Positions 3,467-27,540 of a stretch of 27,540 nucleotides of DNA are shown here, one piece after another; the first letter of the stretch is position 1; every line of letters starts with the position of its first letter. Source of the DNA: Picochlorum sp. SENEW3 (taxonomy: Eukaryota); assembly GCA_034226945.1 (NCBI GenBank), contig CP120464.1, positions 744,001-771,540 of the forward strand, in the 5' to 3' direction. A program made the position numbers and the translations under genes. Below the pieces are notes generated by a model. The model was not told the DNA's origin and did no database searches. It saw only the letters and a program-made list of their open reading frames with translations.

Positions 3467-3787
3467 AAATCAAAAGATACAAATCTCATAATAATCATAA
3501 TGACACAACAACAATCTATACTATGCTATGCTATGCATGAATGAAAAGAATCTCTGTCTTCTTCTTCACAACAGCAACAGCAGCATCAACAGAAGGACAC
3601 AATATTAAGTAAGTAAGTAAGTAAGAAGAATACCAATAATAATAATAATAATAAACACCCATCATTAAAAAAACGTCGCACAACCAGTGGTGCAAAACAT
3701 CAAACAGGTCTGCTGCCACATGTCTGAAGAAGAAGAGGGAGCATCTCGGAACAACAAGATATATATTGAATTATATTGATATATATC
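3467..3787. repeat. AT-rich inter-module spacer, duplicated at about 5332-5637
   Basis: Near-identical text including the (ctatg)n, (taag)n and (aat)n microsatellites and gtggtgcaaaacatcaaacaggtctgctgccacatg. Confidence 0.93.
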
Positions 3788-5278
3788 GAATTCTGTTGTG
3801 AACATTGGTGGTGAATGCGACGCGAAATACTCCTGACGCTGGTGAGCGGAGAAGCTCTTTACACTGCTAGTTCCTTCTCATCAAGTCGATATGAAATGCC
3901 TAAAGTCGGGAGACCACGGGTGAGAGCTTTCAACCTTCGAGTCTGAGGCAACTGCTCCTGCTTTGATTCCTGGCCCATTGCAAAAACATGCGGTGGCCAA
4001 GGTGGGTCCTCGCCATGTAAATGCGCCATCTGGCTCCTTGCATAGGTTTTTCGAATACATGCCAGGCTTAGTAGCACCACGGACGCTACGATATAGTGCT
4101 CACGTGCCCACAATCGTATCCCAAGCGTTGGGAAGTGACTCCCAAACACACCCCTCGCTATCTGGTCGGTCGTCGCGAGTATGGCAAATCCGGGAGAGGG
4201 CATTTGAGATATTATATATACAAGCCTGCTGAATGCGACAGACCCAGAGGAAGACCTCCCACGCGGCCAGAAAAGTGACCCCAAGGGTGTTGCAGCTGTC
4301 TTCTCAACCACCCCTCGCTATCTGGTCGGTCGTCGCGAGTATGGCAAATCCGGGAGAGGGCATTTGAGATATTATATATACAAGCCTGCTGAATGCGACA
4401 GACCCAGAGGAAGATGTCTCACGCGACCAGAAAAGTGACCCCAAGGGTGTTGCAGCTGCCTTCCCAACCACCCCTCGCTATCTGGTCGGTCGTCGCGAGT
4501 ATGGCAAATCCGGGAGAGGGCATTTGAGATATTATATATACAAGCCTGCTGAATGCGACAGACCCAGAGGAAGATGTCTCATGCGACCAGAAAAGTGACC
4601 CCAAGGGCGTTGCACTGGCCTTCTCAACCACCCCTCGCTATCTGGTCGGTCGTCGCGAGTATGGCAAATCCGGGAGAGGGCATTTGAGATATTATATATA
4701 CAAGCCTGCTGAATGCGACAGACCCAGAGGAAGATGTCTCACGCGACCAGGAAAGTGACCCCAAGGGCGTTGCACTGGTCTTCCCAACCACCCCTCGCTA
4801 TCTGGTCGGTCGTCGCGAGTATGGCAAATCCGGGAGAGGGCATTTGAGATATTATATATACAAGCCTGCTGAAAGCGACAGACCCAGAGGAAGATGTCTC
4901 ACGCGACCAGGAAAGTGACCCCAAGGGCGTTGCAGCTGCCTTCTCAACCACCCCTCGCTATCTGGTCGGTCGTCGCGAGTATGGCAAATCCGGGAGAGGG
5001 CATTTGAGATATTATATATACAAGCCTGCTGAAAGCGACAGACCCAGAGGAAGACCTCCCACGCGGCCAGAAAAGTGACCCCAAGGGCGTTGCACTGGCC
5101 TTCTCAACCACCCCTCGCTATCTGGTCGGTCGTCGCGAGTATGGCAAATCCGGGAGAGGGCATTTGAGATATTATATATACAAGCCTGCTGAATGCGACA
5201 GACCCAGCAAAACGCCTCTCACGCGACCAGGAGAGTGACCCCAAGCCAAAAGTTTGAGGTTCTGAACACCCCTTTACA
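3788..5278. repeat. Module B: leader + about 7 monomers of a second 160-bp family + terminal motif
   Basis: cccctcgctatctggtcggt at 4151, 4311, 4471, 4631, 4791, 4951, 5111. The terminal motif CCAAAAGTTTGAGGTTCTGAACACCCCTTTACA is at 5246-5278. Confidence 0.95.
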
Positions 5279-5640: not shown

Positions 5641-6382
5641 CTCCCTCCATACATCAAAGTCACACGCGTTGCTTTGCCCTGAGATTGTTGCGAATTCTGT
5701 TGTGAACATTGGTGGTGAATGCGACGCGAAATACTCCTGACGCTGGTGAGCGGAGAAGCTCTTTACACTGCTAGTTCCTTCTCATCAAGTCGATATGAAA
5801 TGCCTAAAGTCGGGAGACCACGGGTGAGAGCTTTCAACCTTCGAGTCTGAGGCAACTGCTCCTGCTTTGATTCCTGGCCCATTGCAAAAACATGCGGTGG
5901 CCAAGGTGGGTCCTCGCCATGTAAATGCGCCATCTGGCTCCTTGCATAGGTTTTTCGGATACATGCCAGGCTTAGTAGCACCACGGACGCTACGATATAG
6001 TGCTCACGTGCCCACAATCGTATCCCAAGCGTTGCAAAGTGACTCCCAGACACACCCCTCGCTATCTGGTCGGTCGTCGCGAGTATGGCAAATCCGGGAG
6101 AGGGCATTTGAGATATTAGATATACAAGCCTGCTGAATGCGACAGACCCAGAGGAAGATGTCTCACGCGACCAGAAAAGTGACCCCAAGGGTGTTGCAGC
6201 TGCCTTCCCAACCACCCCTCGCTATCTGGTCGGTCGTCGCGAGTATGGCAAATCCGGGAGAGGGCATTTGAGATATTATATATACAAGCCTGCTGAATGC
6301 GACAGACCCGGAGGAAGATGTCTCATGCGGCCAGAAAAGTGACCCCATGCCAAAAGTTTGAGGTTCTGAACACCCCTTTACA
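5641..6382. repeat. Module C: leader almost identical to B + about 2 B-type monomers + terminal motif
   Basis: Monomers start at 6055 and 6215. The terminal motif at 6350-6382 is identical to that of B. Confidence 0.95.
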
Positions 6383-9132: not shown

Positions 9133-12100
9133 TCATTGTTTCTGAATGGCCACGAGGAGAAATATCTGCTTCCTGTCCGTCATCCACCGGTACAAGAATG
9201 GTATTTCCTCGCTATCGCGCTCGACATCGTAGTACACCCTGTTCTTCATGACTGGTCGAGAATGGAAGCCATTTTTTCGGGAGGCCCTGGAGAACGGCTC
9301 CAGACCCATCTCCGACATCATGTGCCTGATCATCTGATTGCGAGGCCGGCCTTCGATGTCGCGGGCTCTGCTCGGGGGGTAGGCAAGATCCACCCAGCCG
9401 TCGCTCCCTGGTGCCGTGTTGACGTTCTCACGCACCAGCCGCAGGCCTGGACCTCCTCCTCGCGGCGCGGTGGACGCCTCGCCCCGCAACGTGTGCAGGA
9501 GGAATCGGTTCAGGTCGTGCACCACGCCTTTCTCTCCGTACTCGTCGGAATAGCCGAGCAGGTAGGCCCGAGCCTTGAAGACGACATTGACGCGTGGGCG
9601 GGGGTGCCGCTCCACGCCGGCTGCCTTCATGGCGCTGTCCAACAGGGCCTTGGTGAACACGTGCACGCACCACGGGGCCCCCCTCAACGGGTAGCGGTGG
9701 TACGTGACATTCGCGTGCATGCCAACAATGTTCTTCTCGGCATCGGCAACTCCACAAGCGCGTAGGTAGGCAGCGAGAGATTTTTGGGGCGCGCCAGAAA
9801 AGCCGACGAATTCCAGGCAGGCGTACCCCCCCTTGTCCAGCAGGCCCTGGATCTGGCTGACGGTGGTGGCGACGGCGGCGGCGGGGCGGCCAGCCCTCCC
9901 TTTGAACAGGTACTCGTCGAAAAAGTCCGCATTGCTCGACACGAACTCTGGCAAGGTGAACGAGACGGACTGGGCCAGTCCCTCCGCCTGTGCCAGGCCA
10001 CCACATGCACCACCATCACCACCGTCCGGCTGGGGAGCCACCCTCGCAATGACATACACGGGACGAAAAGCTCCCTTCCTCGTGGCCTTTTCGTATTCCA
10101 GAGACACCCCCCTGTACGACTCATTTTCCAGCACCGCGGCGTTGTCTACCAGCTGCTTTCGGAGGGACGCCGCCTTCGGGTGGTCCCGCTGGAACCCCAG
10201 GTCGCCGAAGGCGAAATGAACGGCAGCCATGATGCTGTCGAACGACGCAGCGGACGACGCCCCGCTGGCCTTTGGCGTGTACCTGAGCATTGCTCGGGGT
10301 TTGCCGCCGCCCGCACCTCCCTCCTCCGCTCGTCCCTTCTCTCTTCTGGAAGGCTGCTGGATGTCACACATTCCGAGACGCCACAGGTTGTAGTGGATTC
10401 CGGTCGACCCGACGGCCAGTGAGAGCCACGAGCGGACGGTGCCGATGTGAACGTGGCCCACGCCGTGGTCGACGAGCATGGCCTGGACCTCGGTGGGGCT
10501 CAGGTGCAGACGCCCCTGGAGGGTGGGGGTGTCGAACAAGATACCATACTTCCCACTCGGCACAACCACCTCCCGCTTCCGAGCTCTCCTCGTGATGGAC
10601 ACGCCCTCCTCGTGCAACAGACTCTTCCCGTTCCGGTTGAGGAAATAGGCACGAACGAGCCCGTAGATCCATGCCCTCGTGGGAGTCGTCCCGCGCGGGA
10701 GGTATTTTTTCAACCGTGCCACGAGGCCCTCGGTGCGCTCCATCCACGCCACCACCTGCCACAACCCTTGGCACGCGCCGCTGGCGTGCTCTCCGAAGGT
10801 AGCCTCGAACAGGTTGGTGCTCGAGACGGACCCAAAGAGGCGGTAGACGTCGAGGAGCTGGTGCCGATGCGCGGCTGGCTGCCTGCTCCCGAACGTCTCG
10901 GCGACGCAGCGCCGCCTCCTCTCCTCCGCCTCGTGGGGATTCAACACGGAGTCGTTGAGGCTGCCATATATCCGTGAGGCCTCCATCTGGACCCCAAAAA
11001 ACGACCCCAGCATCGTTGCCAGTGCTTTCCTCCCGATCACCACACCCTCGCCACACGCCCCGCTGTGGCGGTCCCTGAATGTGTACCCGTACAGCCCCTT
11101 CAAGCGGTCCACGTCATCGTCGTCGACATCATCATCGTCGTCGACATCATCATCGTCGTGTTCCTCTTCTGGGCGTTCCGGGAGGCGGACGACCTGGATG
11201 CATGGCCTGAGCGCCTGCGGGAGGCCGCCGCGCCCGAACCACCCCAGGACAGTCGAGTCGGCATACTCCTGAAACTCCTTTGGGTACCCCCTCGCCCTCA
11301 TGGCGGCCTTGATTGGCGCGACCGCCTCCACCAGGCAGTCCGCCCGAACCGAAATAGCTGGCAGGTCCGTCTTGCCTTCGTACGGATGCACCAGCACCTC
11401 GATTCGAACACCACACGCAGCAGCCGTGTTTCCCCGGTCGCACAGCAACCGAAGATTCTCGGGGTCGTTGTTCCCCTTGTTCTGATCAATGTGATCGGTC
11501 GTCAGACGCCGCACGCGCCCACCGGCGTCCCAGAGCATCTTGACTTGCACCCCTCTGCCGTCGGCCGTCGGCCGGGCCACCTCCCCCAAGCCAGCGCCTC
11601 CTCCTCCCTCCACCGCGACTGCCGATCCCGTCCTCACCACCTGATGATACAACCGCGTGAAGGAAATTGCCGTATGAATGTAGCAGCTCGTTCCAGCCAC
11701 AGTCAGTGTGCGATAGTGCTGCTGTGGTGTGGTTTTAAGAGGCCGATCCAAAAAGAGCCACGAACCGTCGCTTGGTCTCCAGATGCACTTTTTCTCTGCG
11801 TATAGGAAAATCGTGGGGTCAACTTCGAGATCCACCCACAAAGGCCCGTCCCTTGCCCCCTGTTTGAATTGACGGTACACCTCGCGAGACACCCCGCCCT
11901 CCTCCAGCCTGGCCATGGCAAGCCCCTCGTCTTCCATGCACGCCGACGCCACCTCCTGCCGAACCGTGTCCAGGTCACCGAACGGGATAAACAGGGGATC
12001 GTCCGCCACGCTTTCGGATAAGAACGTCTCCCTATTGCGAGGGCGCGTGTTGACTGCCTGCTGGGCCCCGGTGGCCAGTTGCACCAATGCAGGCTGATTA

Positions 12101-13626
12101 TAGGCGTGGCTCCTGGTCAGGTGGTCCACGCTCAGACCCTCCTCCCACAATAGCCATTCGAACTCTTCCATGGGCATGTCGTACTTGGCCATGGCCGTCA
12201 CATGCCACAACGAGTAACAGCGCGTCTCGGAACCATTCCAGAATCTGACGCCCAAGAAGCCATTAGAATTCACCGGGTGCCGGAAGGCTGCGGTGTCGGT
12301 GTTGGTGATGCAGCGACCTTCCGCCGTGACGTACAGCATCCTGGTATCGTTGTATCCCAAAGACACCCTATTGAAGAAGAAATCCTCGGCCAAGACGTGG
12401 CGCGTGGCCCCGTGGTTCTCTTTGTCGGCACCCGGCAGCAACACATGGGAGCAAATCATTGCCCCCCAGCCCCGAGCATCCACCGAATACGTGAGCGCAC
12501 CAAAATGCAGCAACGCACACACCACTTTCTCGACGCTCATGCTGAGCCCTTCGGGGGTGTATTCCAGCATGTCGACGCCGTGCCGTGGAAAGACGGTACC
12601 AGCATCGCTGTCCGGAATCGGGTCACACATGTCCTCGGCCCGGGTCACACACGTCCACGCGTGGCGCGCACCATCTGGAATCAGGGCGAGCACGCAATCG
12701 GTCAATGTCGACCGGGCGTGGCTGCTGGCATTGCTCCCCGTCGAGCAGTAGATGCTCCAAAACGTCTCGTGCATCTCTTCCAGACCGCCAGCAAACGAGC
12801 AGGACAGCAGCGCCAGAAGAGCCACTTCGATGGGCAAACACCTACACAAATCCTCGTCGGACAGCACAACCTCGCCGAGCTTGGCACGACGCCTGGTATA
12901 CGTAGCGTCCGTTGCAGGCACCCGACGGCCGCAGTAGTCCCACACCATGCACAGCTTGCGCACGTCTTCCAGCGCTGCCGACAGCTGGTCGCCGTCATCA
13001 CGATAAAAGTACTTTGCAGAGGCCTCTTGCGAGGACAGCACGTCGACGACCGGCACGCGTCGTGCCCCAACACCGCCGGCGTCGGCGTCGGCGTCGGTGG
13101 TGAGACCTCTCAAGGTCCCGAGAAAGCCTGCAAGGCCACCAGCGCGTCCCGACGCTCTCAGCCGACGATCGACGAAAGGGCCCAGACCGCCAAACACGTC
13201 CTGCGCCTTCTGGCCTTCCTCCCGTTCCCCGCCACCTGCAACACACCACCATAATACTGATATTAGTATCGGTACGAGCGGTACCATCCGACAATCAGTC
13301 AACCAAGAAGGCAATCGAACGCACCCGGTCCATGAGGGTCGGCTGATCCAGGTGGTGCCAGAGGGACGGGTGCCATGGTCCCCAGAAGAAGAGACCGTTG
13401 ACCAGCTGCCACGCCGAGCCCCCCCTCCCCCGTGGTCGCCCGAGCCCGTTTCTGCAACAGCAACCATGATCGTCATTGCAACTATACATAGTACGAGGAA
13501 TGAAATGCAAGGCCGACGGCGGTGACGACGGCCGGGACGCACCTCGACTCCCAGAACTGTCCCAGTTCGCCTCTTTTTTGAATTCGACAGCAGCGTCTCA
13601 GCCCTCATGACGACCCCTGAATGCAT
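9133..13626 (-). CDS. Large protein (~1497 aa from the first ATG) with two NUMOD4/HNH homing-endonuclease-like domains
   Basis: Uninterrupted GC-rich ORF (open to 13740; first ATG 13626; true start uncertain). Domain 1 (12049-12339): LYVTAEGRC...NGFLGVRF...LWHVTAM...SVDHLTRSHAYNQPALVQLATGAQQAVN. Domain 2 (11449-11716): YRTLTV...YIHTAISF...TDHIDQNKGNNDPENLR. Confidence 0.75.
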   Translation of the reverse strand: MHSGVVMRAETLLSNSKKRRTGTVLGVEVRPGRRHRRRPCISFLVLCIVAMTIMVAVAETGSGDHGGGGARRGSWSTVSSSGDHGTRPSGTTWISRPSWTGCVRLPSWLTDCRMVPLVPILISVLWWCVAGGGEREEGQKAQDVFGGLGPFVDRRLRASGRAGGLAGFLGTLRGLTTDADADAGGVGARRVPVVDVLSSQEASAKYFYRDDGDQLSAALEDVRKLCMVWDYCGRRVPATDATYTRRRAKLGEVVLSDEDLCRCLPIEVALLALLSCSFAGGLEEMHETFWSIYCSTGSNASSHARSTLTDCVLALIPDGARHAWTCVTRAEDMCDPIPDSDAGTVFPRHGVDMLEYTPEGLSMSVEKVVCALLHFGALTYSVDARGWGAMICSHVLLPGADKENHGATRHVLAEDFFFNRVSLGYNDTRMLYVTAEGRCITNTDTAAFRHPVNSNGFLGVRFWNGSETRCYSLWHVTAMAKYDMPMEEFEWLLWEEGLSVDHLTRSHAYNQPALVQLATGAQQAVNTRPRNRETFLSESVADDPLFIPFGDLDTVRQEVASACMEDEGLAMARLEEGGVSREVYRQFKQGARDGPLWVDLEVDPTIFLYAEKKCIWRPSDGSWLFLDRPLKTTPQQHYRTLTVAGTSCYIHTAISFTRLYHQVVRTGSAVAVEGGGGAGLGEVARPTADGRGVQVKMLWDAGGRVRRLTTDHIDQNKGNNDPENLRLLCDRGNTAAACGVRIEVLVHPYEGKTDLPAISVRADCLVEAVAPIKAAMRARGYPKEFQEYADSTVLGWFGRGGLPQALRPCIQVVRLPERPEEEHDDDDVDDDDDVDDDDVDRLKGLYGYTFRDRHSGACGEGVVIGRKALATMLGSFFGVQMEASRIYGSLNDSVLNPHEAEERRRRCVAETFGSRQPAAHRHQLLDVYRLFGSVSSTNLFEATFGEHASGACQGLWQVVAWMERTEGLVARLKKYLPRGTTPTRAWIYGLVRAYFLNRNGKSLLHEEGVSITRRARKREVVVPSGKYGILFDTPTLQGRLHLSPTEVQAMLVDHGVGHVHIGTVRSWLSLAVGSTGIHYNLWRLGMCDIQQPSRREKGRAEEGGAGGGKPRAMLRYTPKASGASSAASFDSIMAAVHFAFGDLGFQRDHPKAASLRKQLVDNAAVLENESYRGVSLEYEKATRKGAFRPVYVIARVAPQPDGGDGGACGGLAQAEGLAQSVSFTLPEFVSSNADFFDEYLFKGRAGRPAAAVATTVSQIQGLLDKGGYACLEFVGFSGAPQKSLAAYLRACGVADAEKNIVGMHANVTYHRYPLRGAPWCVHVFTKALLDSAMKAAGVERHPRPRVNVVFKARAYLLGYSDEYGEKGVVHDLNRFLLHTLRGEASTAPRGGGPGLRLVRENVNTAPGSDGWVDLAYPPSRARDIEGRPRNQMIRHMMSEMGLEPFSRASRKNGFHSRPVMKNRVYYDVERDSEEIPFLYRWMTDRKQIFLLVAIQKQ

Positions 13627-14595
13627 GTATGTGATACTTGTAATATCTATATATATATACACGCGTACAGACAGACGAACCCTCGTCGGATGGGGCGACA
13701 AACAGTCGCACTGAATAAAAGTTTCGCGCGACACGCACACACACCTGTTCCGTATGATATGATACGCACCGATACCACTCTGCAGAGCTATGACTCTAGT
13801 GGTATGTATAATAATAATAAACTCTTGATAACTGCCGCTGACAGCATAGAGGCGCCCAACAAAACAGAGCCACGGAGGTCTGGTTACCGGTTGTTAGTTC
13901 ATCAGGGCCCATGGCCGAGGCCTCCTCCCAGGAGGTGTCCACTCAATACTACAATGCTCACAGCCCTCATGGCATGAGCAGCCATGAGGGCCTCCACCTG
14001 CCCCGCCCCCGGCCCCCTCAGGTTGACGCTCGTCGTGTTGTACATCCTTTCGATAGTGGATCCATTTTTTTAATTTTGGTTTGCTTTGATTTGATTTCTC
14101 TTCTTGTTCAACAGGGGTGCCGCAAGACAGCATGGCAAGAGGATGCCTACTACCCTCCACGTCTTTTACGCATCCAGGGACACCTACCTGGATGCGTACC
14201 ATCATCATGGCCATATATAACTCCATCAAAAAGAAAAAAATGCACCTCGCGCCAAGCCCTTGCGTGTGGCACCACCACACCAAGCAAACTCCGACACGGC
14301 CATGCGAGCTCGTTTCTCGAGAAACACCCTTCCTCGGCCACGGTGCACGGACCAATCGTCGTGCTCATATTATTTGATCTGATGATCAAAATGATAATAA
14401 TAATGATAACAACAATAACAGTAATAATCCCATCCATCCATATACATGGTTTGTAACTGCGCTGCGTGGAGGAGGGTCCTCATTCATGAGGATAGTGAAC
14501 AAGTTTTCCTTTGGAACACTTGTTTCAAAAGGAAAAAAAAAATAGAGAGAGGAGGAAACTTTCTTAATGTTTTATTTGAGGAAGAAAAGTTCCTT

Positions 14596-14607
14596 AAAAA
14601 AAAAAAA
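14596..14607 (-). terminator. RNA polymerase III terminator (T12)
   Basis: A T-run on the minus strand immediately after the tRNA discriminator base. Confidence 0.8.
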
Positions 14608-14679
14608 CGCCGAACCAGGGAATCGAACCCAGATCTCCTGCGTGACAGGCAGGAATACTAACCATTATACTAATTCGGC
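14608..14679 (-). tRNA. trnD-GUC: tRNA-Asp (GTC), 72 nt
   Basis: Acceptor stem GCCGAAT/GTTCGGC; D-arm TAGTATAATGGTTAGTAT; anticodon arm CCTGC-CTGTCAC-GCAGG; T-loop GTTCGATTC (one T-T mismatch in the T-stem); discriminator G; no encoded CCA. Confidence 0.95.
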
Positions 14680-14733
14680 TGCTGTGCTTGGTGCTTCGGA
14701 ATTTATGCCCATATATGTGGTGTTTTAGGGGAA

Positions 14734-17700
14734 TTTTTTTTTTTTTTTTTTTGAGCCGTGTTTTCTGCACGCCAAGGCCCTGGAACAGCGGATCCGACCG
14801 CCCCTTGGTGTGCTGAAGAAGCAAGAGAGTGAGAAAATCTGGGCCGACACAAAGTTGCTGCTTGCGTGGGCGGCCTCCTCGTGAGGGAACCCGGCTGCCT
14901 GTGCGACTGAGGAAGCTTGGGGTGTCAATGAGAAGCGCCCACGTTGCAAGTGGTTCCTTCCTGGTGGCCCGTGCCTGTCAGGAGACATAGCAGTGGCCGC
15001 CAGCTGGGTGTCCAGATACCATTCCAGGCATGTGAGGATTGCACTCACTAAAAACTCACTCCCACACCTCGGGATGGGATCACCCAACCCCTTGGCGTCG
15101 ACTGGTTGTTCTGGGCCGTCCAGACCAGACCCCGCTGTCTCCGAGCTGTTCTGCCGCCTCGGCGACATGGGAGTGAACAGCCCCGAGCCTGGGGGCGGTG
15201 GTCCTTTCAGCAAAGAACTGCCTTACACTAAACGGTGCATTGGCTCTGGGACGGACCGGGGGTGACCCTCTGCGCTGGGTCACCTTATCACGAATGTTCT
15301 GAAAGTGCTTGCCGAGCACTCGATGTAAAAATCTGCCTACACGTTGCCACAACGGGATCTGTGGCTGGCTGCTGCTGGCCTCGCCAATCGAGGCTGTGTC
15401 TTCTCCATCCTCGTCCTCATCCATCAGCCAAGACATGGCTGAGTCCTCTGGTGCCTGCATTGAGGAACCATCACTGTCTGTGTCCTGCACACTGGGCATC
15501 TCATCTGGAGGGCTCGTCCCTCGCACGTGAGTAGATAAATTGTTAGTATGGTCAGTAGAAGACGTAGATCGTAAGTCATACCGGTGGGACTCCCTGGCTG
15601 GCTGGGAGGGAGTCCCTTCCACGTGGGGGGCTGTCCCCCTGGCTGGCTGTGGGGACGGCGTGCCCACCCACATTTGCTGAAGATTCTGAAGAATTTCAGC
15701 GTCAGTGGTGGAGAGACCTCCAAGGCACGCTGTCCACACAGTGTCACTTCGACGTTGCAGCTGGTGGTCGTCGAAGAACTTGGTGATGGCGTCTATCGCT
15801 GGTCTGAGAATGGCTTCTCGCTGTTCCTGAAATGCTGGACACACCATGCCAATGTGGTGGAGGTCATCCCTCGGGGCGCTGTCACACGAGGGGCACACAC
15901 ATTCAAAGCCTGGCAAGAGGCACGTTTCGTGCCATTTGGACAATCTGTAGAGCAGGCCTGGCCACGCGTTCAGTCTGGTCCTAAGAAGCCGATGCATGTC
16001 CACAGGGGTGGTCCGATGTGTGCTAATCTTCAGGTATGTCTTCGTGTTCTGCATATTGTTGGCAAAGTAGTGTCCCCCAGCCGCTGCCGTGCTGGTGGAC
16101 CGGTATTCTCTGCTCAATGCCTCTTTCACTTGCTTAGCCACCGTCTTTGGCTGTAGGTCTTCAACATCTGCAGGCGAGAGTCCCAAGCGTGCCATCTGTT
16201 TGCTGAAAATCCTGCTGGAGGGCTGGGTCCAGCTGAGCCGAGAGAAGCTGCGGTCTCTGACGAAATCTGCAATCCAAGTATGGAGGTGACGCCATTTGAT
16301 CCATGCACGTACCCTTTGGGACGTAGCAATAGCGCTGATATTTGCTATGTCCAGTTCCTCGTGAACGATGTGGGTGCTGATGGCTCGCTTGTTCTTCATT
16401 CTGCCGACTGTGGTCAAGCGGAGAGCATTGTTCAGGATGCGCTGTACTGGAGGAATGTTGCACTGCTTGTCTGCCCAGACTTCTGCACCATAGCACAGCT
16501 GAGGGAGGAGGATACCATTGATCACCATCTTCTTCATCGCCACTGGGATGGAGGAGTGTGCCAGGAACGGGGCCAAGTGGCTGAGCGTTTTGGCCCCGGT
16601 GACTGCCCTGGCTTCTGCCATGGTAGCTGTGGATACCTCTGTGTCGATGGTGAGTCCCAGGTATGTATACTGATCCACAACTGGAATAACACTCCCTTGT
16701 GTACGCCAGACTGAATCTTTGGCTTTGCTGTGTGCAGGCTGATCGTGCAAGACCATGAGTCCGCATTTGTCGTGGCCAATCTTCATGTGCCAGGACGTCG
16801 CCCACTCCCCAAAGGCTGCCAGATTATCCCTCATCTCCGTGTCTGTATTGGCAAGAATCCATGACATAGTTGAACAGCAGGGGAGACAAGCTGTCCCCCC
16901 TGCCGCACCCCGCGTTCTAGTGGGGCCAGGTCTGAGGTTGTGGGACCCACTAGAACGCGGAAGGTACCGTTGGTATACAGGCGTTGAATGAAAGACCAGC
17001 ACTTACCTGAGACTCCTTTGGCTCTGAGGATGTGAAGCATGCCATTGTGTGGGACCATGTCAAAGGCTTTCTGGAGGTCCATGAAGGCGACATATGTCGG
17101 CTTCGCTTCTGCACCCCGTCTACCTGCAATTTCTATGAGGGTGGCGGCCTGTGCGTTGCACTCTTCCCGCAGGCGGAAGCCTGCTTGCTCCTTGCGCAGG
17201 CCTCCCGTGCCTGGGACTGCATGTTGTTGGAATCTGTTCGCGACAATTTTCGTGACCAACTTGAGCACGCAGGAGATTAAGCTGATACCTCTCCTGTTGC
17301 TCAAGTAGGTGAAATCCTTGTTTGGCTTGGGCAGGGAGACGACGAGACTGGTATTCAGGGCATCAGAGATGTTGCCCGAGAATACCGAGTTGCACGTCCG
17401 CAGCAAAACCGTGCCCATCGCCGATTCTGGGGAGCTGGAGGTCAAATCTACACGACACAAGCGAAGGAATTCGTTAGGGAGACCATCCATGCCAGGACAC
17501 TTACTGGTTTTGAGCTGGTGCAGGACACCATTCAATTCCTCCCATGTAATGTCTTCATTCAAGGCTTCAATCGGCGGCTGCTGTTCCATGGGCTGGTGGT
17601 CGGCCCACCATTGTAGCGATTGACTGTCTGGATCCGTGGCGAGCTGGCTATAATGGCATCGTGTGGCTGTCACGATGTCCTCTAGATCTTGGAGCATGTT

Positions 17701-19531
17701 GCCCTCCATGTCTCTGGTGGGAGGGACGGCTGGCAGTGAAGTTTGCTTCTTCGCAGACATGCTTTTAATCCAGCGCCACACTTTGGAGTAGTTGCCTTCG
17801 CGGAGTGGCCTGAGACCGCGCTCGATGTGCTTTGACCAGCCCTTTCTATTATCTTTCATTCGAAGGTGCTTGGCGCGCTGCCTGGCTTCGCGAGCCCTGC
17901 ACAAGCATTCCTCCGAGATGTCTTCTCCTCGCTGCTGGCTTCGTCTGATGGCTTGCGTCAAAGCACTGCTCTGTCTGATGGCGGTCTTGGTGGCGCTGGA
18001 GTGGGTATGGTGGAGGCGCTTCTGGTGGTGACCTTGGGCGACTGTGACATAGCAGGCATTGTCAGACAGCACTTCCTGGCTGAGCTGGATGAAGGCGTCT
18101 GTATTGAACTCTACGTCACCCAAGGCTGCAAGGGCCGCCCATCTGTTATCGTCCAAGATAGGGCGTCGACAGGTAAGCATTGTCTTCACATCCACGCGAC
18201 GCCTCGCTGGTCTGGCTACAGGACGGTGCTGGACCGTGTGCTGCAGGGGCAGGACAAGGGGCACGTGATCAGACGTATCGTACTCAGGTTTCGTCAACAC
18301 CTCTTGGGCAACAAATGGACGGGCACTGGCAGAGACCACGAAGAAGTCGATGGTGGAGGGGCTGAAACAAGTACCTGCAGGAAAACGAGTAAACTGGGAG
18401 TTATGGATGACTTCAAATGGTCCGTGGAGCTGAGTAGACAACTCCTCGAATGTCATGTTGAAGTCACCCCCTGCAATAATAGGAATAGTAGGATACTTAG
18501 TAGCATATGTGTTCAGCAGATCGAGAAACTCAGTCCAACACGCTGTGCGACGAAGGGCTGTTCTCTGCGATACCACTGGGAGGTACAGGTTCACGAAAAT
18601 ACAGTCAGTGTGTTGTAACAGTCCCGTGATCCGAATGGGTAATATGTTAGGATTAGCACACGGCAGCTCTACCACGGGCAATTCTTTATTGTACAAGATG
18701 CAGATGCCTCTTGCACCAGGAACGTCCCGGGTCATCGAGCGATGCACTGTATGATATCCACGCATATCCAGGGGGAAGGTATGGGCTTGGATCTGATGTT
18801 CTTGAATGGCGAGGATCTGCGGGCGCTGTTTTGCTAAGAGTTGGTCTATAGTGGCACGGTTGCCGTTGGCCGTTCTAATATTCCAACTAATTATACGTGG
18901 CAGGACATGTTTCTTCTGCAGGACGGGGTGCACGTCAGTAGAGGAACGGGATCGTACCTGACGTGCGTTTGCCCTCACACGGTACCCTCGGTGCGGTCTA
19001 ATACACCAGCCATAGTGCCACAGCAGATCGTCTCGGTGTCGCCAATGTGTCGTGCTATCCTCGGATTGCTCCCTGGGGTAAAGGAGGTCCAGCCATGCTT
19101 TGAGGTCATGGCTGGGCTCGCCATCCCTGTTGGTACGACAATACACGCTTCCCAAGGGGAATTGTGTACGTCCAGGGAGCGACTCCTTGTGTGGAGCACT
19201 GGTGGTAATAACGAACATGACCGTTGGGCGGATCTCCGACGAGATCTGCCGTGATCGAGAGCGGTTGGGGCGTCCAATCCTGATCCGCTCAATATGTTCG
19301 ATACGCACGAGTGAGTCCACCGGGAGCATATCCTGGAATATTTGGTATACCGTAGCAACCGTGGTTGCTGGTATACCCCACACAGCCCATGTGGCTAACT
19401 GTCGAGATCCGCGGGATGGTTCGACGATTAGACCCGAGGTGCCGTGTGGAAGAAGTTGCTCTGCCATGTTTAATTAGTCTAGAAACAGGTTTCTAAGGCT
19501 AAAAAACACGGGAGTGCGAGCACGACAGTGT
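14734..19531 (-). mobile_element. Near full-length non-LTR retrotransposon (single-ORF APE-RT LINE, RTE/RTEX-like architecture), copy 1
   Basis: About 64-nt 5' UTR, ATG at 19467, APE and RT domains, C-terminal CCHC finger, about 330-nt 3' UTR, A19 tail (T-run 14734-14752). The clade is tentative. Confidence 0.93.
15080..19467 (-). pseudogene. LINE polyprotein (APE endonuclease - RT - zinc finger), disrupted in the RT core
   Basis: APE: IISWNI, AIQEH, GGDFN, TIDFF, SDHVPL. RT: KCPGMDG, NRRGISLIS, EQAGFR, FMDLQKAFDMVPH, GVRQG. A second frame continues with YTYLG, LCYGAEVW and CPSC..DDLHHIGMVC. There is a frameshift at a G6 run (16895-16900) and no YADD motif. Confidence 0.9.
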
Positions 19532-19537
19532 AAAAAA

Positions 19538-21064
19538 TTTTTTTTTTTTTTTTTTGAGCCGTGTTTTCTGCACGCCAAGGCCCTGGAACAGCGGATCCGA
19601 CCGCCCCTTGGTGTGCTGAAGAAGCAAGAGAGTGAGAAAATCTGGGCCGACACAAAGTTGCTGCTTGCGTGGGCGGCCTCCTCGTGAGGGAACCCGGCTG
19701 CCTGTGCGACTGAGGAAGCTTGGGGTGTCAATGAGAAGCGCCCACGATGCAAGTGGTTCCTTCCTGGTGGCCCGTGCCTGTCAGGAGACAGAGCAGTGGC
19801 CGCCAGCTGGGTGTCCAGATACCATTCCAGGCATGTGAGGATTGCACTCACTAAAAACTCACTCCCACACCTCGGGGACATGGGAGTGAACAGCCCCGAG
19901 CCTGGGGGCGGTGGTCCTTTCAGCAAAGAACTGCCTTACACACGTTGCCACAACGGGATCTGTGGCTGGCTGCTGCTGGCCTCGCCACTCGAGGCTGTGT
20001 CTTCTTCATCCTCTTCCTCATCCACCAGCCAAGACATGGCTGCGTCCTCTGGTGCCTGCATTGAGGAACCATGACTGTCTGTATCCTGCACACTGGGCAT
20101 CACATGGGTGGAGAGACCTCCAAGGCACGCTGTCCACACCGTGTCACAAGAGGTCATCCCTCGGGGCACACACATTCAAAGCCTGGCAAGAGGCATACTT
20201 CGTGCCATTTGGACAATCTGTAGAGCAGGCCTGGCCACGCGTTCAGTCTGGTCCTAAGAAGTCGATGCATGTCCACAGGGGTGGCCCGATGTGTGCTAGT
20301 CTTCAGGTATGTCTTCGTGTTCTGCATATTGTTGGCAAAGTAGTGTCCCCCAGCGGCTGCCGTGCTGGTGGACCGGTATTCTCTGCTCAATGCCTCTTTC
20401 ACTTGCTTAGCCACCGTCTTTGGCTGTAGGTCTTCAACATCTGCAGACGAGAGTCCCAAGCGTGCCATCTGTTTGCTGAAAATCCTGCTGGAGGGCTGGG
20501 TCCAGCTGAGCCGAGAGAAGCTGCGGTCTCTGACGAAATCTGCAATCCAAGTATGGAGGTGACGCCATTTGATCCATGCACGTACCCTTTGGGACGTAGC
20601 AATAGCGCTGATATTTGCTATGTCCAGTTCCTCGTGAACGATGTGGGTGCTGATGGCTCGCTTGTTCTTCATTCTGCCGACTGTGGTCAAGCGGAGAGCA
20701 TTGTTCAGGATGCGCTGTACTGGAGGAATGTTGCACTGCTTGTCTGCCCAGACTTCTGCACCATAGCACAGCTGAGGGAGGAGGATACCATTGATCACCA
20801 TCTTCTTCATCGCCACTGGGATGGAGGAGTGTGCCAGGAACGGGGCCAAGTGGCTGAGCGTTTTGGCCCCGGTGACTGCCCTGGCTTCTGCCATGGTAGC
20901 TGTGGATACCTCTGTGTCGATGGTGAGTCCCAGGTATGTATACTGATCCACAACTGGAATAACACTCCCTTGTGTACGCCAGACTGAATCTTTGGCTTTG
21001 CTGTGTGCAGGCTGATCGTGCAAGACCATGAGTCCGCATTTGTCGTGGCCAATCTTCATGTGCC
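19538..21064 (-). mobile_element. LINE copy 2: 5'-truncated, five internal deletions, A18 tail
   Basis: Matches copy 1 from 14734 to about 16791 with blocks missing at about 15073-15162, 15229-15339, 15501-15705, 15748-15859 and 15878-15894. Confidence 0.93.
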
Positions 21065-22017
21065 TTGCGTGGGCGGCCTCCTCGTGAGGGAACCCGGCTG
21101 CCTGTGCGACTGAGGAAGCTTGGGGTGTCAATGAGAAGCGCCCACGTTGCAAGTGGTTCCTTCCTGGTGGCCCGTGCCTGTCAGGAGACAGAGCAGTGGC
21201 CGCCAGCTGGGTGTCCAGATACCATTCCAGGCATGTGAGGATTGCACTCACTAAAAACTCACTCCCACACCTCGGGGACATGGGAGTGAACAGCCCCGAG
21301 CCTGGGGGCGGTGGTCCTTTCAGCAAAGAACTGCCTTACACACGTTGCCACAACGGGATTTGTGGCTGGCTGCTGCTGGCCTCGCCACTCGAGGCTGTGT
21401 CTTCTTCATCCTCTTCCTCATCCACCAGCCAAGACATGGCTGCGTCCTCTGGTGCCTGCATTGAGGAACCATGACTGTCTGTATCCTGCACACTGGGCAT
21501 CACATGGGTGGAGAGACCTCCAAGGCACGCTGTCCACACCGTGTCACAAGAGGTCATCCCTCGGGGCACACACATTCAAAGCCTGGCAAGAGGCACACTT
21601 CGTGCCATTTGGACAATCTGTGGAGCAGGCCTGGCCACGCGTTCAGTCTGGTCCTAAGAAGCCGATGCATGTCCACCGGGGTGGTCCGGTGTGTGCTAAT
21701 CTTCAGGTATGTCTTCGTGTTCTGCATATTGTTGGCAAAGTAGTGTCCCCCAGCCGCTGCCGTGCTGGTGGACCGGTATTCTCTGCTCAATGCCTCTTTC
21801 ACTTGCTTAGCCACCGTCTTTGGCTGTAGGTCTTCAACATCTGCAGGCGAGAGTCCCAAGCGTGCCATCTGTGTGCTGAAGATCCTGCTGGAGGGCTGGG
21901 TCCAGCTGAGCCGAGAGAAGCTGCGGTCTCTGACGAAATCTGCACGTACCCGTTGGGACGTGGCAATAGCGCTGATGTTTGCTATGTCCAATTCCTCATG
22001 AACGAGGTGGGTGCTGA
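21064..22017 (-). mobile_element. LINE copy 3: same deletions as copy 2 plus one more; lacks the tail and the last ~108 nt
   Basis: Repeats copy 2 at a 1400-bp offset (19664 vs 21064). Extra deletion at aaatctgca|cgtacc (about 21944). Similarity stops at about 22017. Confidence 0.92.
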
Positions 22018-22230
22018 GGATGGGTCGGACCAGGACCACCAGTTGGCAGCACTCAGCAGTGGCAAGGGCAATCCTTCGTTTTGATCGATGTAGATCATGG
22101 CAAAGGGAAATTCAGCCGTCCTCAGGCATGCGATCTATCAGTGGTGATTGAGAGAGAATTCATCAAAGAGGCCTGCCGTCCTGTAGCACCAAGGAGTGAC
22201 CCAAAGTTCAGGTCCTAAACCATTGCTTAG

Positions 22231-24116: not shown

Positions 24117-24278
24117 TGTGTGCGTTCTATCACTTTAGATGTTAGTACAAGTTACAATAGTTACTTGCTTATATATCTTCGTTGACTGTTATTGTTCTCT
24201 CCATGCTTATATACCTTGGCAACCATCATGAGTAAGTGGTTGTTCTAATTTAGATGATTTAAGACGTAACAGTTTCTA
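24117..24278 (+). repeat. Left inverted repeat (162 bp)
   Basis: Reverse complement of 27379-27540. The outer 132 bp are identical; mismatches occur only at 24249, 24250 and 24273. Confidence 0.97.
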
Positions 24279-24340
24279 GTACCTCCTCTGTATCTTTGCC
24301 TTCGCCTGATGCCACATCACGTCGCTTGAAACTTTGCGCC

Positions 24341-27300
24341 ATGCTCATGGAAGAAGACGAGCTGGTTGATCTGTGGCACAATAAAGCAGACCTAGTCGAA
24401 TATTGCTGCACATTGAATTATCAGGGTCCTCCATACCCATTTGTTGGGAATGTTGAATTGCCTGATTCTTCTCCCAAATCACAATTTCATGTCGGTTTGA
24501 ATGATACGAGACTAACGAATTTCTTGCATAGCAATCAAGATATCTTTGTTCAGGGTTTACCGCCATTGCCGCCGCGAAGGCCAGGTTTTGATGTGAAATT
24601 GTCTTTGAAAGAAGGCGCTCAACCGCCTACAACATACTTTAAATGGCCTACAGCGGAAGAGGAGGCTTTTCTTAGACAAAAAGTTGACGAGCTGTTGAAA
24701 GAAGGATTCATCGTACCTAGTACATCTGCTTTTGGGAGTCATGTTTTGTTTGTCAAGAAGAAGGATGGCTCCATGCGCATGGTAGTTGATTACCGTGCGA
24801 TTAATAAGCTCATCGTGGATCAAGCGTCGGATTTGCCACCTATTCAATATCTCCTCAGCAAGATTCGCCATCGCAAGGTTCTCAGCTCGCTTGACTGTGC
24901 AAGTGGGTATTGGCAACTCCGATTGCAAGATCGTCAGTCTATGGAACTGTCATCTTTCATCACGCCGATGGGTCGGTGCATCTTTAAAGTGCTACCGTTT
25001 GGACTCCGAGTAGCACCAGGTCATTTCTCTAGGCGTTTGGCCTCAATTTTAGGGGATCTGCTTGCCACCGGTGAAGTGTTCTTCTATATGGATGACATGT
25101 TCATAGGTACTGACTGTGTCCCACGCCATCTTGAAATTTTACGAATTCTGCTCGACCGTCTCCGTCAGTATCAGCTCTATTTGAATTCGAGCAAATGTTT
25201 CTTTTTCTTTGAGCGTTTGGAATGGCTTGGACATGTTATTTCTGCCAATGGAATAGAAGTTACCCCTCAGAAGGTGCAAGCCATCCAGCAATTGAAGCCT
25301 CCAGAGAACCTATCTCAATTGCGTTCAGTTTTGGGTCTCACAAACTTTTATCGACGGTTTTGTCAAGGCTATGCAAAGATTGCCGCCATTCTGTCCGAGC
25401 TGCTGAAAGGTAAAACGCTGGTGTGGTCTGCACAAGCTCAAATAGCCTTTGAAACATTGAAGAAGCTGATTACCAGTGCGCCTGTTCTCGCTGTGCCAGA
25501 GCCCACACAGCCGTTTTTGATTCAATGTGATGCCAGTGATTTAGCCCTCGGTGCTGTTTTGATGCAGAATCCCACAGGTAAAGGCTGGCAGCCCATAGAG
25601 TACTTGTCCCACAAGTTCACTGATACCGAAGCGAGATATGGTATTTGTGAGAAGGAGACTTTAGCTATTGTGTATTGTCTCAAACAGTGGGCCAAATTCC
25701 TCACACAATCCCCCCAGGTAATTGTCGAAACAGATAACGCCGCAGCCGCTCGTATGCTCGCACAACGAGAACTTCTCAAGGGCCGAAGAGAAGTTGGCTA
25801 CCTGCAAGTGCTATCTCAGTATCGAGATGGGCAATTAATTATTCGTCATTTGCCAGGTGCCAAGAACAAGGTCTCTGATCCTTTATCCAGATTGCCGAAT
25901 GGGGTGCATCAGGCACAGACTCTACCCTCCTCAGATGTCGAGCCTCATCATTTGCTAGCAGTGTCGGAACAGCCCAACGAGCTGGCGGATCCAATTCAGT
26001 ATATGTGTGATACGATTCGGAAGTCGTACTCGGAGGACCCCTGGACATCTGTTTTGTTGCGTTGTGTGCTTGAACCTCAACGAGCACCTTACAGCACATG
26101 TAGTCGGTTGTGTCGTAAAATCGACCCCAGGAGTTGTCGATTGGAGAATGGACTGCTGAGAGGTGAATATTGTGAAGTCACCATCATTCCTAATTGCCCA
26201 CAGACTGATGCTCTCAGACAGAATATTCTTCGTCAGTTTCATGAGCAGTGTGTTCATGGAGCACACCAGGAAACTAAAGCCAGATTAAGTCGGCATTTTT
26301 ATTGGAAGCATCATCTTCATGAGTGTCATTTGTTTGTCTCGCGTTGTCATGTGTGCCAGTGTGCCAAGGACAGTACTCAGAAGCCGTTTAATAATGCTCA
26401 GGCTTTGCCAGTTCCTCCACATCCCTTTCATACAGTGCATATGGACGTTTGTTCAGGTTTTCCAGCTGTCGAACTGTCGGTTTCTGGTCATGTGGAGATA
26501 GTGGATTGTATTGTTGTGTTTGTTGACAGTCTGACCAAATTCGTGGTCATTGTCGCCACCTCCAAGAAAGGGTTAACTGGTGCCAAGATTGCTGACCTGT
26601 ATTTTCATCATGTTTTCAAGCGTTTTGGGATCTCGCATCGTTTGATTTCGGATAGAGGTAGTGAATTCGTGAATGACTTTTCTGCTCGCCTGAATGTGTG
26701 TTTCCAAATCGAAGTGAGCCGTACAACGTCCTATCATCCAGCAGGAAATGGTCAAGTGGAACGATATAATAGGCTCATACTGAATAAATTGCGCTGTCTT
26801 ATGCATCCTTCCGATGATGATAATCGTCATGCGCGAAATTGGGCTGATAAGCTCACTATGATTGAATTTGCGTTGAATTCGTTGGTGAATACAAGAACGA
26901 AGCATTCCCCATTCTTTCTGAATCATGGTCGTGAATTAGTCTTCCCTATGGAATTTGAGCGCCAATTACTTCTGGATCCTCATAATACAGATGTGCAGAC
27001 TCGATTACAGAACATTCAAGCAGCACAGATACAAGCCAGAGAGGCTTTAGACCATTATCAAATGACAAAGGTTGTGTCTGGTCAACGAAAATTCCAAAAG
27101 CACAACTTTAAGCCAGGTGATCGTGTTCTTTTGAATGTGAAATATTTGCATCTGGGATCTGCAATTAAGTTGCCGAAGCTCATTCCACGTTTCATTGGTC
27201 CTTTTACTATTCAGCGTATGCTTTCGCCAAACACTGCTCTCATCTTTTGGACTGATTTGTGTGATTCTGGCACTCCTAAATCCAAATTAGACTTGGAGTT

Positions 27301-27412
27301 GATCCAGACAATGCGTCGTGCTCGACCAGTGTTACATGTTAAATGGTTTCGCAGGTATAATACTGATAAAGCCCAGTGTAGAACCTGTTACGTCTTAAAT
27401 CATCTATTTTAG
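24341..27412 (+). CDS. pol: Ty3/Gypsy-type Pol: RT, RNase H, integrase (no protease, no gag, no chromodomain seen)
   Basis: RT: VKKKDGSMRMVVDYR, LDCASGYWQ, LPFGL, YMDD. RNase H: CDAS, EKETLA, ETDN, DPLSR. Integrase: H-X4-H...CHVC, VHMD, ISDRGSEF, GQVERYN (D-35-E counted), PRFIGPF. The frame is open from 24263; the first ATG is at 24341. Confidence 0.95.
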   Translation: MLMEEDELVDLWHNKADLVEYCCTLNYQGPPYPFVGNVELPDSSPKSQFHVGLNDTRLTNFLHSNQDIFVQGLPPLPPRRPGFDVKLSLKEGAQPPTTYFKWPTAEEEAFLRQKVDELLKEGFIVPSTSAFGSHVLFVKKKDGSMRMVVDYRAINKLIVDQASDLPPIQYLLSKIRHRKVLSSLDCASGYWQLRLQDRQSMELSSFITPMGRCIFKVLPFGLRVAPGHFSRRLASILGDLLATGEVFFYMDDMFIGTDCVPRHLEILRILLDRLRQYQLYLNSSKCFFFFERLEWLGHVISANGIEVTPQKVQAIQQLKPPENLSQLRSVLGLTNFYRRFCQGYAKIAAILSELLKGKTLVWSAQAQIAFETLKKLITSAPVLAVPEPTQPFLIQCDASDLALGAVLMQNPTGKGWQPIEYLSHKFTDTEARYGICEKETLAIVYCLKQWAKFLTQSPQVIVETDNAAAARMLAQRELLKGRREVGYLQVLSQYRDGQLIIRHLPGAKNKVSDPLSRLPNGVHQAQTLPSSDVEPHHLLAVSEQPNELADPIQYMCDTIRKSYSEDPWTSVLLRCVLEPQRAPYSTCSRLCRKIDPRSCRLENGLLRGEYCEVTIIPNCPQTDALRQNILRQFHEQCVHGAHQETKARLSRHFYWKHHLHECHLFVSRCHVCQCAKDSTQKPFNNAQALPVPPHPFHTVHMDVCSGFPAVELSVSGHVEIVDCIVVFVDSLTKFVVIVATSKKGLTGAKIADLYFHHVFKRFGISHRLISDRGSEFVNDFSARLNVCFQIEVSRTTSYHPAGNGQVERYNRLILNKLRCLMHPSDDDNRHARNWADKLTMIEFALNSLVNTRTKHSPFFLNHGRELVFPMEFERQLLLDPHNTDVQTRLQNIQAAQIQAREALDHYQMTKVVSGQRKFQKHNFKPGDRVLLNVKYLHLGSAIKLPKLIPRFIGPFTIQRMLSPNTALIFWTDLCDSGTPKSKLDLELIQTMRRARPVLHVKWFRRYNTDKAQCRTCYVLNHLF

Positions 27413-27540
27413 AACAACCACTTACTCATGATGGTTGCCAAGGTATATAAGCATGGAGAGAACAATAACAGTCAACGAAGATATATAAGCAAGTAACTAT
27501 TGTAACTTGTACTAACATCTAAAGTGATAGAACGCACACA
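27379..27540 (-). repeat. Right inverted repeat (162 bp, reaches the window edge)
   Basis: Reverse complement of the left repeat. It contains the pol stop codon (27410-27412) and two TATATAAGCA motifs on the + strand. Confidence 0.97.

Follow-up and report, generated by a model that had tools for sequence, protein, structure and literature searches.

We analyzed a stretch of 27,540 nucleotides from Picochlorum sp. SENEW3, which is referred to as the window. Picochlorum is a trebouxiophyte with a compact genome of ~13 Mb. The window contains a tRNA gene and, on the same strand, three pieces of a non-LTR retrotransposon (LINE), with the following features:

14596-14607, 3' of the tRNA-Asp gene: T12 run resembling a Pol III terminator (sequence)
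14608..14679, minus strand: tRNA-Asp gene, anticodon GTC (ARAGORN and Rfam RF00005, 58.3 bits)
14680..14733, minus strand: 54-bp spacer between the tail of LINE copy 1 and the tRNA 5' end (sequence)
14734..14752, minus strand: poly(A) tail of LINE copy 1, a pure A19 (sequence)
14753..19537, minus strand: LINE copy 1, full length but defective (Pfam, self-BLAST, tblastn with the proteins P0001 and P0010)
16850..16900, minus strand: lesions of copy 1, a gap of ~78 nt and an extra G (tblastn, run contigs)
19538..19555, minus strand: poly(A) tail of LINE copy 2, an A18 that abuts a T6 and then copy 1
19556..21064, minus strand: LINE copy 2, 5'-truncated, equivalent to copy 1 positions 2750-4806 (self-BLAST)
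21064..22017, minus strand: LINE copy 3, equivalent to copy 1 positions 3161-4680 (self-BLAST, MAFFT)

The surroundings are rich in repeats. Arrays of a 160-bp satellite are located at 997-3411 (15 units), 4149-5245 (7 units) and 6044-6347, and a Ty3/gypsy pol gene is present at 24263-27412. With satellites, LINE stack and Ty3/gypsy element within 27.5 kb, the window is a repeat island. The Picochlorum genome is otherwise repeat-poor according to excerpts of PMC11092101.

The presence of a tRNA-Asp gene at the stack, which a preliminary description of this DNA had proposed, was confirmed: ARAGORN and Rfam agreed on a single tRNA-Asp(GTC) at 14608-14679. With its Rfam score and the T12 terminator, the gene looks functional. 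The position of the copy 1 poly(A), 54 bp from the tRNA 5' end and on the same strand, was likewise borne out. The spacer contains the A/T-rich motifs ATATAT (-37..-32) and ATAAATT (-27..-21), which may be read as TATA-like. In X15, a run of the probable source strain whose contigs total 13.3 Mb, the word depth indicated that the spacer is single-copy, and one contig of 6237 bp covers 13700-14720, the tRNA included.

Copy 1 is 4.8 kb long, and its 5' leader starts at 19531. The T6 at 19532-19537, between this leader and the tail of copy 2, may or may not belong to copy 1. The ATG is found at 19467, with the apurinic-type endonuclease (APE) and the first part of the reverse transcriptase (RT) within 16831-19467. 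The C-terminal part with a CCHC motif is encoded within 15080-17002, and the 3' UTR extends over 14753-15079. Pfam matched Exo_endo_phos (1.5e-13) and RVT_1 (1.1e-11), and the Cys-His motif reads C-x2-C-x9-H-x4-C. By tblastn, ~78 nt are missing at 16850-16858, corresponding to P0001 residues 871-896 and including the invariant LLADD box; residues L889, L890, A892, D893 and D894, which are invariant in the RT protein alignment A1 of relatives, are thereby gone. One extra G in a G-run near 16895 causes a +1 frameshift. Contigs of X18 and X7 do not have this G, as is the case for part of the X13 contigs, and those of X18 and X7 have 78 extra letters at the position of the gap. Because of the frameshift and the loss of the RT catalytic box, copy 1 is dead. 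The most complete copy had been said to lie nearest to the tRNA; copy 1 is indeed the most complete, but it is not intact.

Copy 2 carries internal deletions in its C-terminal region, the CCHC motif included (MAFFT gap list). Copy 3 has neither a poly(A) tail nor the last 127 bp and is fused to the 5' end of copy 2, with 1 nt of microhomology at the junction; its own 5' junction also appears as a loose end at 16380 in X15. The deletions of copy 3 are those of copy 2 plus one more, those common to both forming four blocks by BLAST and five by MAFFT, and the two copies have in common 15 substitutions relative to copy 1 (954 three-way aligned columns). Since deletions and substitutions are in common, copies 2 and 3 are not demonstrably independent insertions. 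A simple tandem duplication as their sole origin was rejected, as copy 2, although the downstream one, reaches further 5' (2750) than the upstream copy 3 (3161); better fits would be template switching or a pair of insertions with a later deletion. The LINE 3' end (24 nt) followed by A8 occurs twice in the window versus 0 expected (100 shuffles), poly(A) tails are present on only two of the three pieces of the stack, and tblastn revealed no further LINE fragment in the window. The stack previously described as three deep thus consists of three same-strand LINE pieces but of only two tailed insertions, copy 3 being tailless.

The reported distance of 6 bp between the poly(A) of copy 2 and the 5' end of copy 1 corresponds to TTTTTT between the A18 and the first bases of copy 1. 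Copy 1 has GGCTC-A18-TT as its 5' flank and GGCTC-A19-TT as its 3' flank. This arrangement would be the trace expected of an insertion into an existing A-run, and a target duplication of up to A18TT at copy 1 is possible. A target duplication around the whole stack was absent: the longest word that the spacer has in common with the 60 nt upstream of copy 3 is 5 nt.

The protein P0010 (1582 aa) aligned along all of copy 1, from 19446 to 15083 (tblastn), and both P0010 and a second relative, P0017 (1583 aa), are encoded by a single ORF. These relatives, P0010 spanning the whole of copy 1, support the earlier designation as a single-ORF LINE. The annotated proteins P0009 and P0002, from strains SENEW3 and BPE23, are ~90% matches to the LINE. 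The APE-type, L1-like features comprise an N-terminal APE, an RT, a C-terminal Cys-His motif, the A19 and A18 tails and 5'-truncated copies. As judged from sequence, the family is a single-ORF (~1,580 aa), poly(A)-tailed LINE with APE, RT and CCHC motif, which we term L1-like by its domains, tails and PDB match. Its best solved relative in the PDB was human L1 ORF2p (97.7 bits, over the RT and its flanks) versus 75.6 bits for R2. Human LINE-1 ORF2p has the same combination of APE, RT and C-terminal Cys-His motif, and human LINE-1 also ends in a poly(A) tail; it differs in its separate ORF1, whereas the Picochlorum LINE has an extra N-terminal region of ~190 aa fused into its one ORF. The relatives showed a weak zf-RVT match. 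A domain search did not find RNase H in copy 1 and its closest relatives; it was found only in P0019 and P0020, which are more distant. The N-terminal 195 aa were modeled by AlphaFold with a mean pLDDT of only 54.7, and Foldseek, used to compare this region with the PDB, returned nothing at E ≤ 0.001 and no DNA-binding or known targeting fold. The best Foldseek rows (E 0.2-1) were generic ferredoxin/RRM-like folds, with the L1 ORF1p RRM at rank 10, a weak lead.

The word depth of the LINE in X15 climbs towards the 3' end and suggests about 20 LINE 3' ends, with just one full-length copy, located at the tRNA-Asp locus. Flanks were listed for three other truncated copies in X15, with 5' junctions at 14837, 14858 and 15115; 41 further loose ends fell outside this listing. 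All three of these flanks are unique upstream sequence of 255 letters or more, and none is the tail of another copy. Because of this, self-stacking does not look like the rule, nor does the family look like a strict former of Zepp-type clusters. In strain X7, the 3'-flank contig of the full-length copy lies off this tRNA-Asp locus. The other copies appear to be dispersed. The comparison with the runs covers sequence outside 14721-14761, the masked 3' junction; stretches of the flank that have no cover in X18, or in X7 beyond 14308, are uninformative.

In searches of sequence collections, the exact 24-nt pattern of the LINE 3' end had no match in the metagenome, genome and viral contig collections. 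P0001 gave 26 pattern matches but no relatives among metagenome contigs, and alignment A1 gave 174 pattern matches but no relatives among viral contigs. Among genome contigs, A1 retrieved 91 relatives, all of them LINEs on contaminant contigs of bacterial metagenome-assembled genomes. Only one of the 80 that were kept, L001, is close (55% identical along an internal piece of 1.2 kb). The 29 of these 80 LINE-bearing contigs that were scanned with ARAGORN yielded no tRNA, a result that is uninformative for the Picochlorum LINE. Among the listed titles and abstract openings on Picochlorum retrotransposons, no description of this LINE was found, and the same holds for the listed matches on Picochlorum centromeres and LINEs. 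A literature search for retrotransposons upstream of tRNA genes in algae returned no report.

The explanation that we favor, with about even confidence, is that the single-ORF L1-like LINEs of Picochlorum form a small family with recent activity and that the stack was built by ordinary target-primed reverse transcription (TPRT) that re-used the tail of an earlier copy. Initially, a deleted, 5'-truncated variant would have inserted and given rise to copy 2. Copy 3 could have arisen together with copy 2, if the reverse transcriptase switched templates, or from a second insertion of the variant that was later trimmed by a small deletion. Full-length copy 1 would then have nicked the T-run opposite the A-tail of copy 2 and primed there. 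Priming of L1 on T-runs is an established mechanism, to which the likeness here is by analogy. Priming on the A-tail of copy 2 would put the newer copy, in unchanged orientation, between the flank and the tail already there. The stack site would be a harmless spot inside the repeat island, and the tRNA gene merely a marker of where the first copy landed and survived in a gene-dense genome, with no Pol III factor guiding it. We infer the order of events, the priming on the A-tail and that the tRNA is incidental; the anatomy, both tails, the deletions in common, the loss of function of copy 1 and the host genus are shown. The preliminary description had postulated repeated insertion at a fixed distance from the tRNA gene; the three events shrink to two tailed ones, the second of which lies on the A-run of the first. 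Such a position is predicted by A-tail priming and would be explained equally well without a Pol III factor. According to passages of PMC8226300 and PMC3446292, Zepp LINEs, which belong to the same algal class (Trebouxiophyceae), integrate into copies already present and build tandem arrays mostly of 3' ends.

An alternative is Pol III-directed targeting, which we consider rather unlikely. The LINE protein, perhaps by its N-terminal region of ~190 aa, would recognize TFIIIB/TFIIIC and nick ~50-55 bp upstream of tRNA genes, so that successive copies land at one spot and shove older ones away, in convergence with the dictyostelid TRE5 and NLTR-B elements. The 54-bp spacer falls within the tight distance ranges of TRE5 and NLTR-B, the only LINEs known upstream of tRNA genes, which are 44-54 bp for TRE5 (PMC5911963) and 39-64 bp for NLTR-B (PMC5911963; PMC5006619). 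This match, the location of the only full-length copy of X15 at the tRNA-Asp gene and the compactness of the genome (13.3 Mb of X15 contigs), a setting in which safe-haven targeting evolved repeatedly according to the abstract of PMC5006619, argue for targeting and count against the explanation that we favor. The three listed X15 flanks, none of them the tail of another copy, also count against the latter. Moreover, both tailed insertions end at the identical nucleotide relative to the tRNA, the tRNA-Asp is apparently functional, and the TATA-like motifs at -37..-21 would place the insertion just outside a presumed TFIIIB site. By our estimate for ~20 copies inserted uniformly in 13.3 Mb, which assumes ~50 tRNA genes, ~0.001 such adjacencies would be expected by chance, which counts against an incidental tRNA neighbor.

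On the other hand, this is one locus, which cannot by itself show tRNA targeting, and its second insertion is accounted for by A-tail priming. The locus is surrounded by an island of satellites and transposable elements, and the N-terminal region is without a DNA-binding or known targeting fold in the AlphaFold and Foldseek analyses. LINE lineages upstream of tRNA genes are known only in dictyostelids, and a scan this large produces chance neighbors. The full-length copy of X7, whose 3' flank is not at tRNA-Asp, speaks neither for nor against targeting, as another tRNA might lie in that flank, and the absence of tRNAs from the 29 scanned of 80 contaminant contigs with distant LINE relatives weighs little against targeting, as other families are involved and contigs are short.

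TRE5-A of Dictyostelium discoideum resembles the Picochlorum LINE in being APE-type and oligo(A)-tailed, in residing in a compact genome and in its distance of 44-54 bp, compared to 54 bp here. TRE5 elements differ in that they face the tRNA in the opposite orientation and have two ORFs, with ORF1p binding TFIIIB (PMC5911963), whereas the Picochlorum LINE is on the same strand as the tRNA and has a single ORF of ~1,580 aa, so that it is not a TRE5 element proper. The tRNA association is genome-wide for TRE5, whereas for the Picochlorum LINE a distance within the published range was found at a single locus. Pp_NLTR-B of Polysphondylium pallidum is also located 39-64 bp upstream of tRNA genes, and since it is a non-TRE LINE, the tRNA-upstream position evolved more than once. 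It differs in its separate ORFs and its RNase H, a domain not seen in copy 1 and its closest relatives. In general terms, we regard it as unlikely that a single-ORF L1-like LINE of Picochlorum integrates ~54 bp upstream of tRNA genes and faces the same way as the tRNA, possibly via its fused N-terminal domain.

Less probable still is that the family, in the manner of Zepp, prefers one repeat cluster per chromosome, with the window as a candidate Picochlorum centromere and the tRNA there by chance: satellites, LINE stack and Ty3/gypsy element lie together in an otherwise repeat-poor genome, and the ~20 LINE 3' ends may be set beside the 12 centromeres reported for SENEW3 (PMC11092101), but the window holds only three LINE pieces, and the three listed truncated copies of X15, with unique upstream flanks of at least 255 letters, are not joined to further copies. 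Centromere sequences of Picochlorum are uncharacterized according to excerpts of PMC11092101, and the green-algal centromeres known so far are described in parts of PMC11005252 and PMC12633428 as clusters of transposable elements, tens of kb in size, with L1/Zepp, RTE-X or Copia elements. Zepp and Zepp-like LINEs of Chlorella, Coccomyxa and Chlamydomonas resemble the Picochlorum LINE in poly(A) tails and 5' truncation and perhaps in nested head-to-tail arrays of 3' ends in repeat clusters; Zepp comes from the same algal class, and the likeness is one of behavior. They differ in forming one large cluster per chromosome, compared to one head-to-tail stack of three pieces here, apparently dispersed copies elsewhere and listed X15 junctions unjoined to another copy in 3/3 cases.

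Without targeting, the locus would be an ordinary nested LINE insertion in a repeat island and a possible marker of centromere-like regions in Picochlorum. If targeting were true, the family would add one more independent origin of safe-haven targeting guided by Pol III. Neither LINEs outside Amoebozoa nor the green lineage would have provided an earlier case, and the convergent strategy of yeast Ty elements and dictyostelid TREs would reach green algae. Picochlorum would then offer a transformable alga with a compact genome for studying recognition of the Pol III complex by a single-ORF LINE.

The LINE stack consists of three pieces (copies 1, 2 and 3) on the minus strand, located upstream of a tRNA-Asp(GTC) gene and in the same orientation. 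This gene, called by ARAGORN and with Rfam (58.3 bits), is the only tRNA gene in the window and is followed directly on its 3' side by a T12 run.

Features of the tRNA-LINE stack, the pieces being read from the sequence
14608-14679, minus: tRNA-Asp(GTC)
14680-14733, minus: 54-bp spacer on the tRNA side of the LINE tail
14734-14752, minus: tail of copy 1, pure A19
From the A19 tail to ~19531, minus: body of copy 1
19532-19537, minus-strand reading: six T's between copy 1 and the copy 2 tail
19538-19555, minus: tail of copy 2, A18
19556-21064, minus: copy 2
21064-22017, minus: copy 3

The tRNA calls, the sequence, self-BLAST and the terminal 24-mer of the LINE, which occurs twice in the window versus zero times expected from shuffles, all agree with the coordinates and spacings of the preliminary description. 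Its stack of head-to-tail pieces was likewise recovered, except that only two of the three carry a poly(A) tail. Copy 3 ends 127 bp before the LINE 3' end and is fused to the first base of copy 2, with one common G. In self-BLAST, copy 2 corresponds to positions 2750-4806 of copy 1 with four internal gaps, and copy 3 to positions 3161-4680 with the gaps of copy 2 and one extra. Over 954 three-way aligned columns, 15 differences from copy 1 are common to copies 2 and 3, with 7 differences private to copy 2 and 12 to copy 3. Because they have these differences and the deletions in common, copies 2 and 3 descend from one deleted variant, either as a single insertion with a template switch or as two insertions and subsequent trimming by a deletion. 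Tandem duplication alone was rejected as their origin, since the downstream copy extends further 5' than the upstream one in self-BLAST. The left flank of copy 1 reads GGCTC-A18-TT and the right one GGCTC-A19-TT, so that copy 1 is positioned exactly on the A-run of copy 2. No target-duplication-like repeat bracketing the whole stack was found, the longest word in common being 5 nt.

The best explanation, in which we place about even confidence, is that an ordinary L1-like LINE inserted a second time by re-using the tail of the first insertion, the tRNA neighbourhood being a place that tolerates insertions. If the T-run facing the resident A-tail is nicked during target-primed reverse transcription, the poly(A) of the new RNA could prime at the nick, and the new copy would come to lie in the same orientation, with the old tail on one side and the downstream flank on the other. 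This expected arrangement is the one seen in the stack. In the algal class that includes Picochlorum, Zepp LINEs of Chlorella and Coccomyxa are reported to target copies already present and to form tandem arrays mostly of 3' ends (PMC8226300, PMC3446292). Green-algal centromeres are described as clusters of TEs that span tens of kb (PMC11005252, PMC12633428). The element is an L1-like LINE of Picochlorum with nesting that may be Zepp-like; our literature searches found no published description of it.

In copy 1, 16831-19467 codes for APE and the beginning of RT (Pfam), and 15080-17002 for a long C-terminal part in which the sequence shows a C-x2-C-x9-H-x4-C motif. Copy 1 is dead through two lesions: one extra G near 16895, which is absent in contigs of the isolate runs X18 and X7 and in part of those of X13, and ~78 nt missing at 16850-16858 compared to isolate contigs. 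Residues 871-896 of the related LINE protein P0001, including the LLADD box that is invariant in the family alignment, lack a counterpart in copy 1. Since another relative, P0010 (1582 aa), aligns with copy 1 from end to end, the family plan is a single ORF of ~1,580 aa, in line with the single ORF proposed initially. Weak zf-RVT matches occur in some relatives, and an RNase H domain is present in others that are more distant. Among relatives of solved structure, human L1 ORF2p scores highest (97.7 bits, versus 75.6 bits for R2), and we call the LINE L1-like. Ahead of the endonuclease lies an N-terminal region of ~190 aa (18883-19467, minus), which is kept in P0010 (50% identity) and the relative P0013 (30%). 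It folds poorly (mean pLDDT 54.7), the low-confidence model predicting a beta-alpha-beta-beta, ferredoxin or RRM-like arrangement, and a structural search gave no significant match for it.

The closest proteins are from Picochlorum. They include a hypothetical protein of strain BPE23, a 91%-identical entry named 'LINE-1 retrotransposable element ORF2 protein, partial [Picochlorum sp. SENEW3]', and a 98%-identical protein from a transcriptome, which indicates transcription of the family in one strain. The family is present in contigs of all four coded isolate runs (X7, X13, X15 and X18). X15 is probably the strain from which the window comes, its contigs showing no differences from the window on most pieces.

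Word depth in X15
Unique flank: 58.7
LINE 5' half, 17816-19383: 55.1
17032-17619: 119
16052-16443: about 305-316
Last 200 bp of the LINE: 1263

This gradient suggests ~20 3' ends, of which few belong to long copies and one to a full-length copy, that of the window; these are indicative estimates only, because summed contig depth does not equal copy number. In all four runs the contigs depart from the window sequence 3' of about 15030, and in X15 and X18 they also do so 3' of about 14785, which suggests LINE subfamilies with different 3' UTRs. In one X18 contig, 22043-22072, a stretch close to copy 3 on its upstream side, is joined directly to window position 15392 within the LINE, bypassing the start of copy 3; this reflects either a differently truncated copy at possibly the same upstream flank or a repeated 22043-22072 flank.

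The window is a repeat island.

Features around the stack
997-3411: 160-bp satellite array, 15.1 units
4149-5245: 160-bp satellite array, 6.9 units
6044-6347: 160-bp satellite array, 1.9 units
9133-13893, minus: open frame, 1,586 codons, ~60% GC, HNH motif
24263-27412: Ty3/gypsy pol ORF (RT, RNase H, integrase)

The satellites form tandem arrays of two different families (94-96% matches) and may be centromere-like or subtelomeric DNA. Picochlorum genomes are described as compact and repeat-poor, with centromeres located, in that account, by Hi-C only (PMC11092101). The pol ORF is flanked by a 98% identical, 162-bp inverted repeat (24117-24278 and 27379-27540), whose second arm is cut by the window end; inverted arms are odd for an LTR element, the repeats of which are direct. 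The open frame starts ~870 bp downstream of tRNA-Asp, and the part near its start, from 13700 onward, shows conservation in X13. The sole motif in the frame is a weak HNH_3/HNH match (E 2e-4) near residues 795-822, and its nearest language-model clusters, viral HNH endonucleases (score 0.88), are a lead only.

The preliminary description had proposed that integration is directed to tRNA genes, a plausible reading that we nevertheless consider rather unlikely. The 54-bp distance falls within the reported ranges of the dictyostelid LINEs TRE5 (44-54 bp; PMC5911963) and NLTR-B (39-64 bp; PMC5911963; PMC5006619), whereas TRE5 is oriented opposite to the tRNA and has two ORFs (PMC5911963; PMC5006619). 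Between the tRNA and the insertion, and close to the latter, are A/T-rich motifs at -37 to -21 of the tRNA, a putative TFIIIB site, and the genome is compact; by our own arithmetic, which assumes ~50 tRNA genes, ~0.001 matches of this kind are expected under uniform insertion. However, this is one locus that was picked in a scan of very many, targeting can be imitated by survival bias when a genome is gene-dense, and re-use of the resident A-tail accounts for the second insertion without any Pol III factor. The three 5' junctions of other copies displayed for X15 all lie in unique DNA, which argues against strict self-stacking and is uninformative on tRNAs. If true, a tRNA-targeting LINE would be the first in the green lineage.
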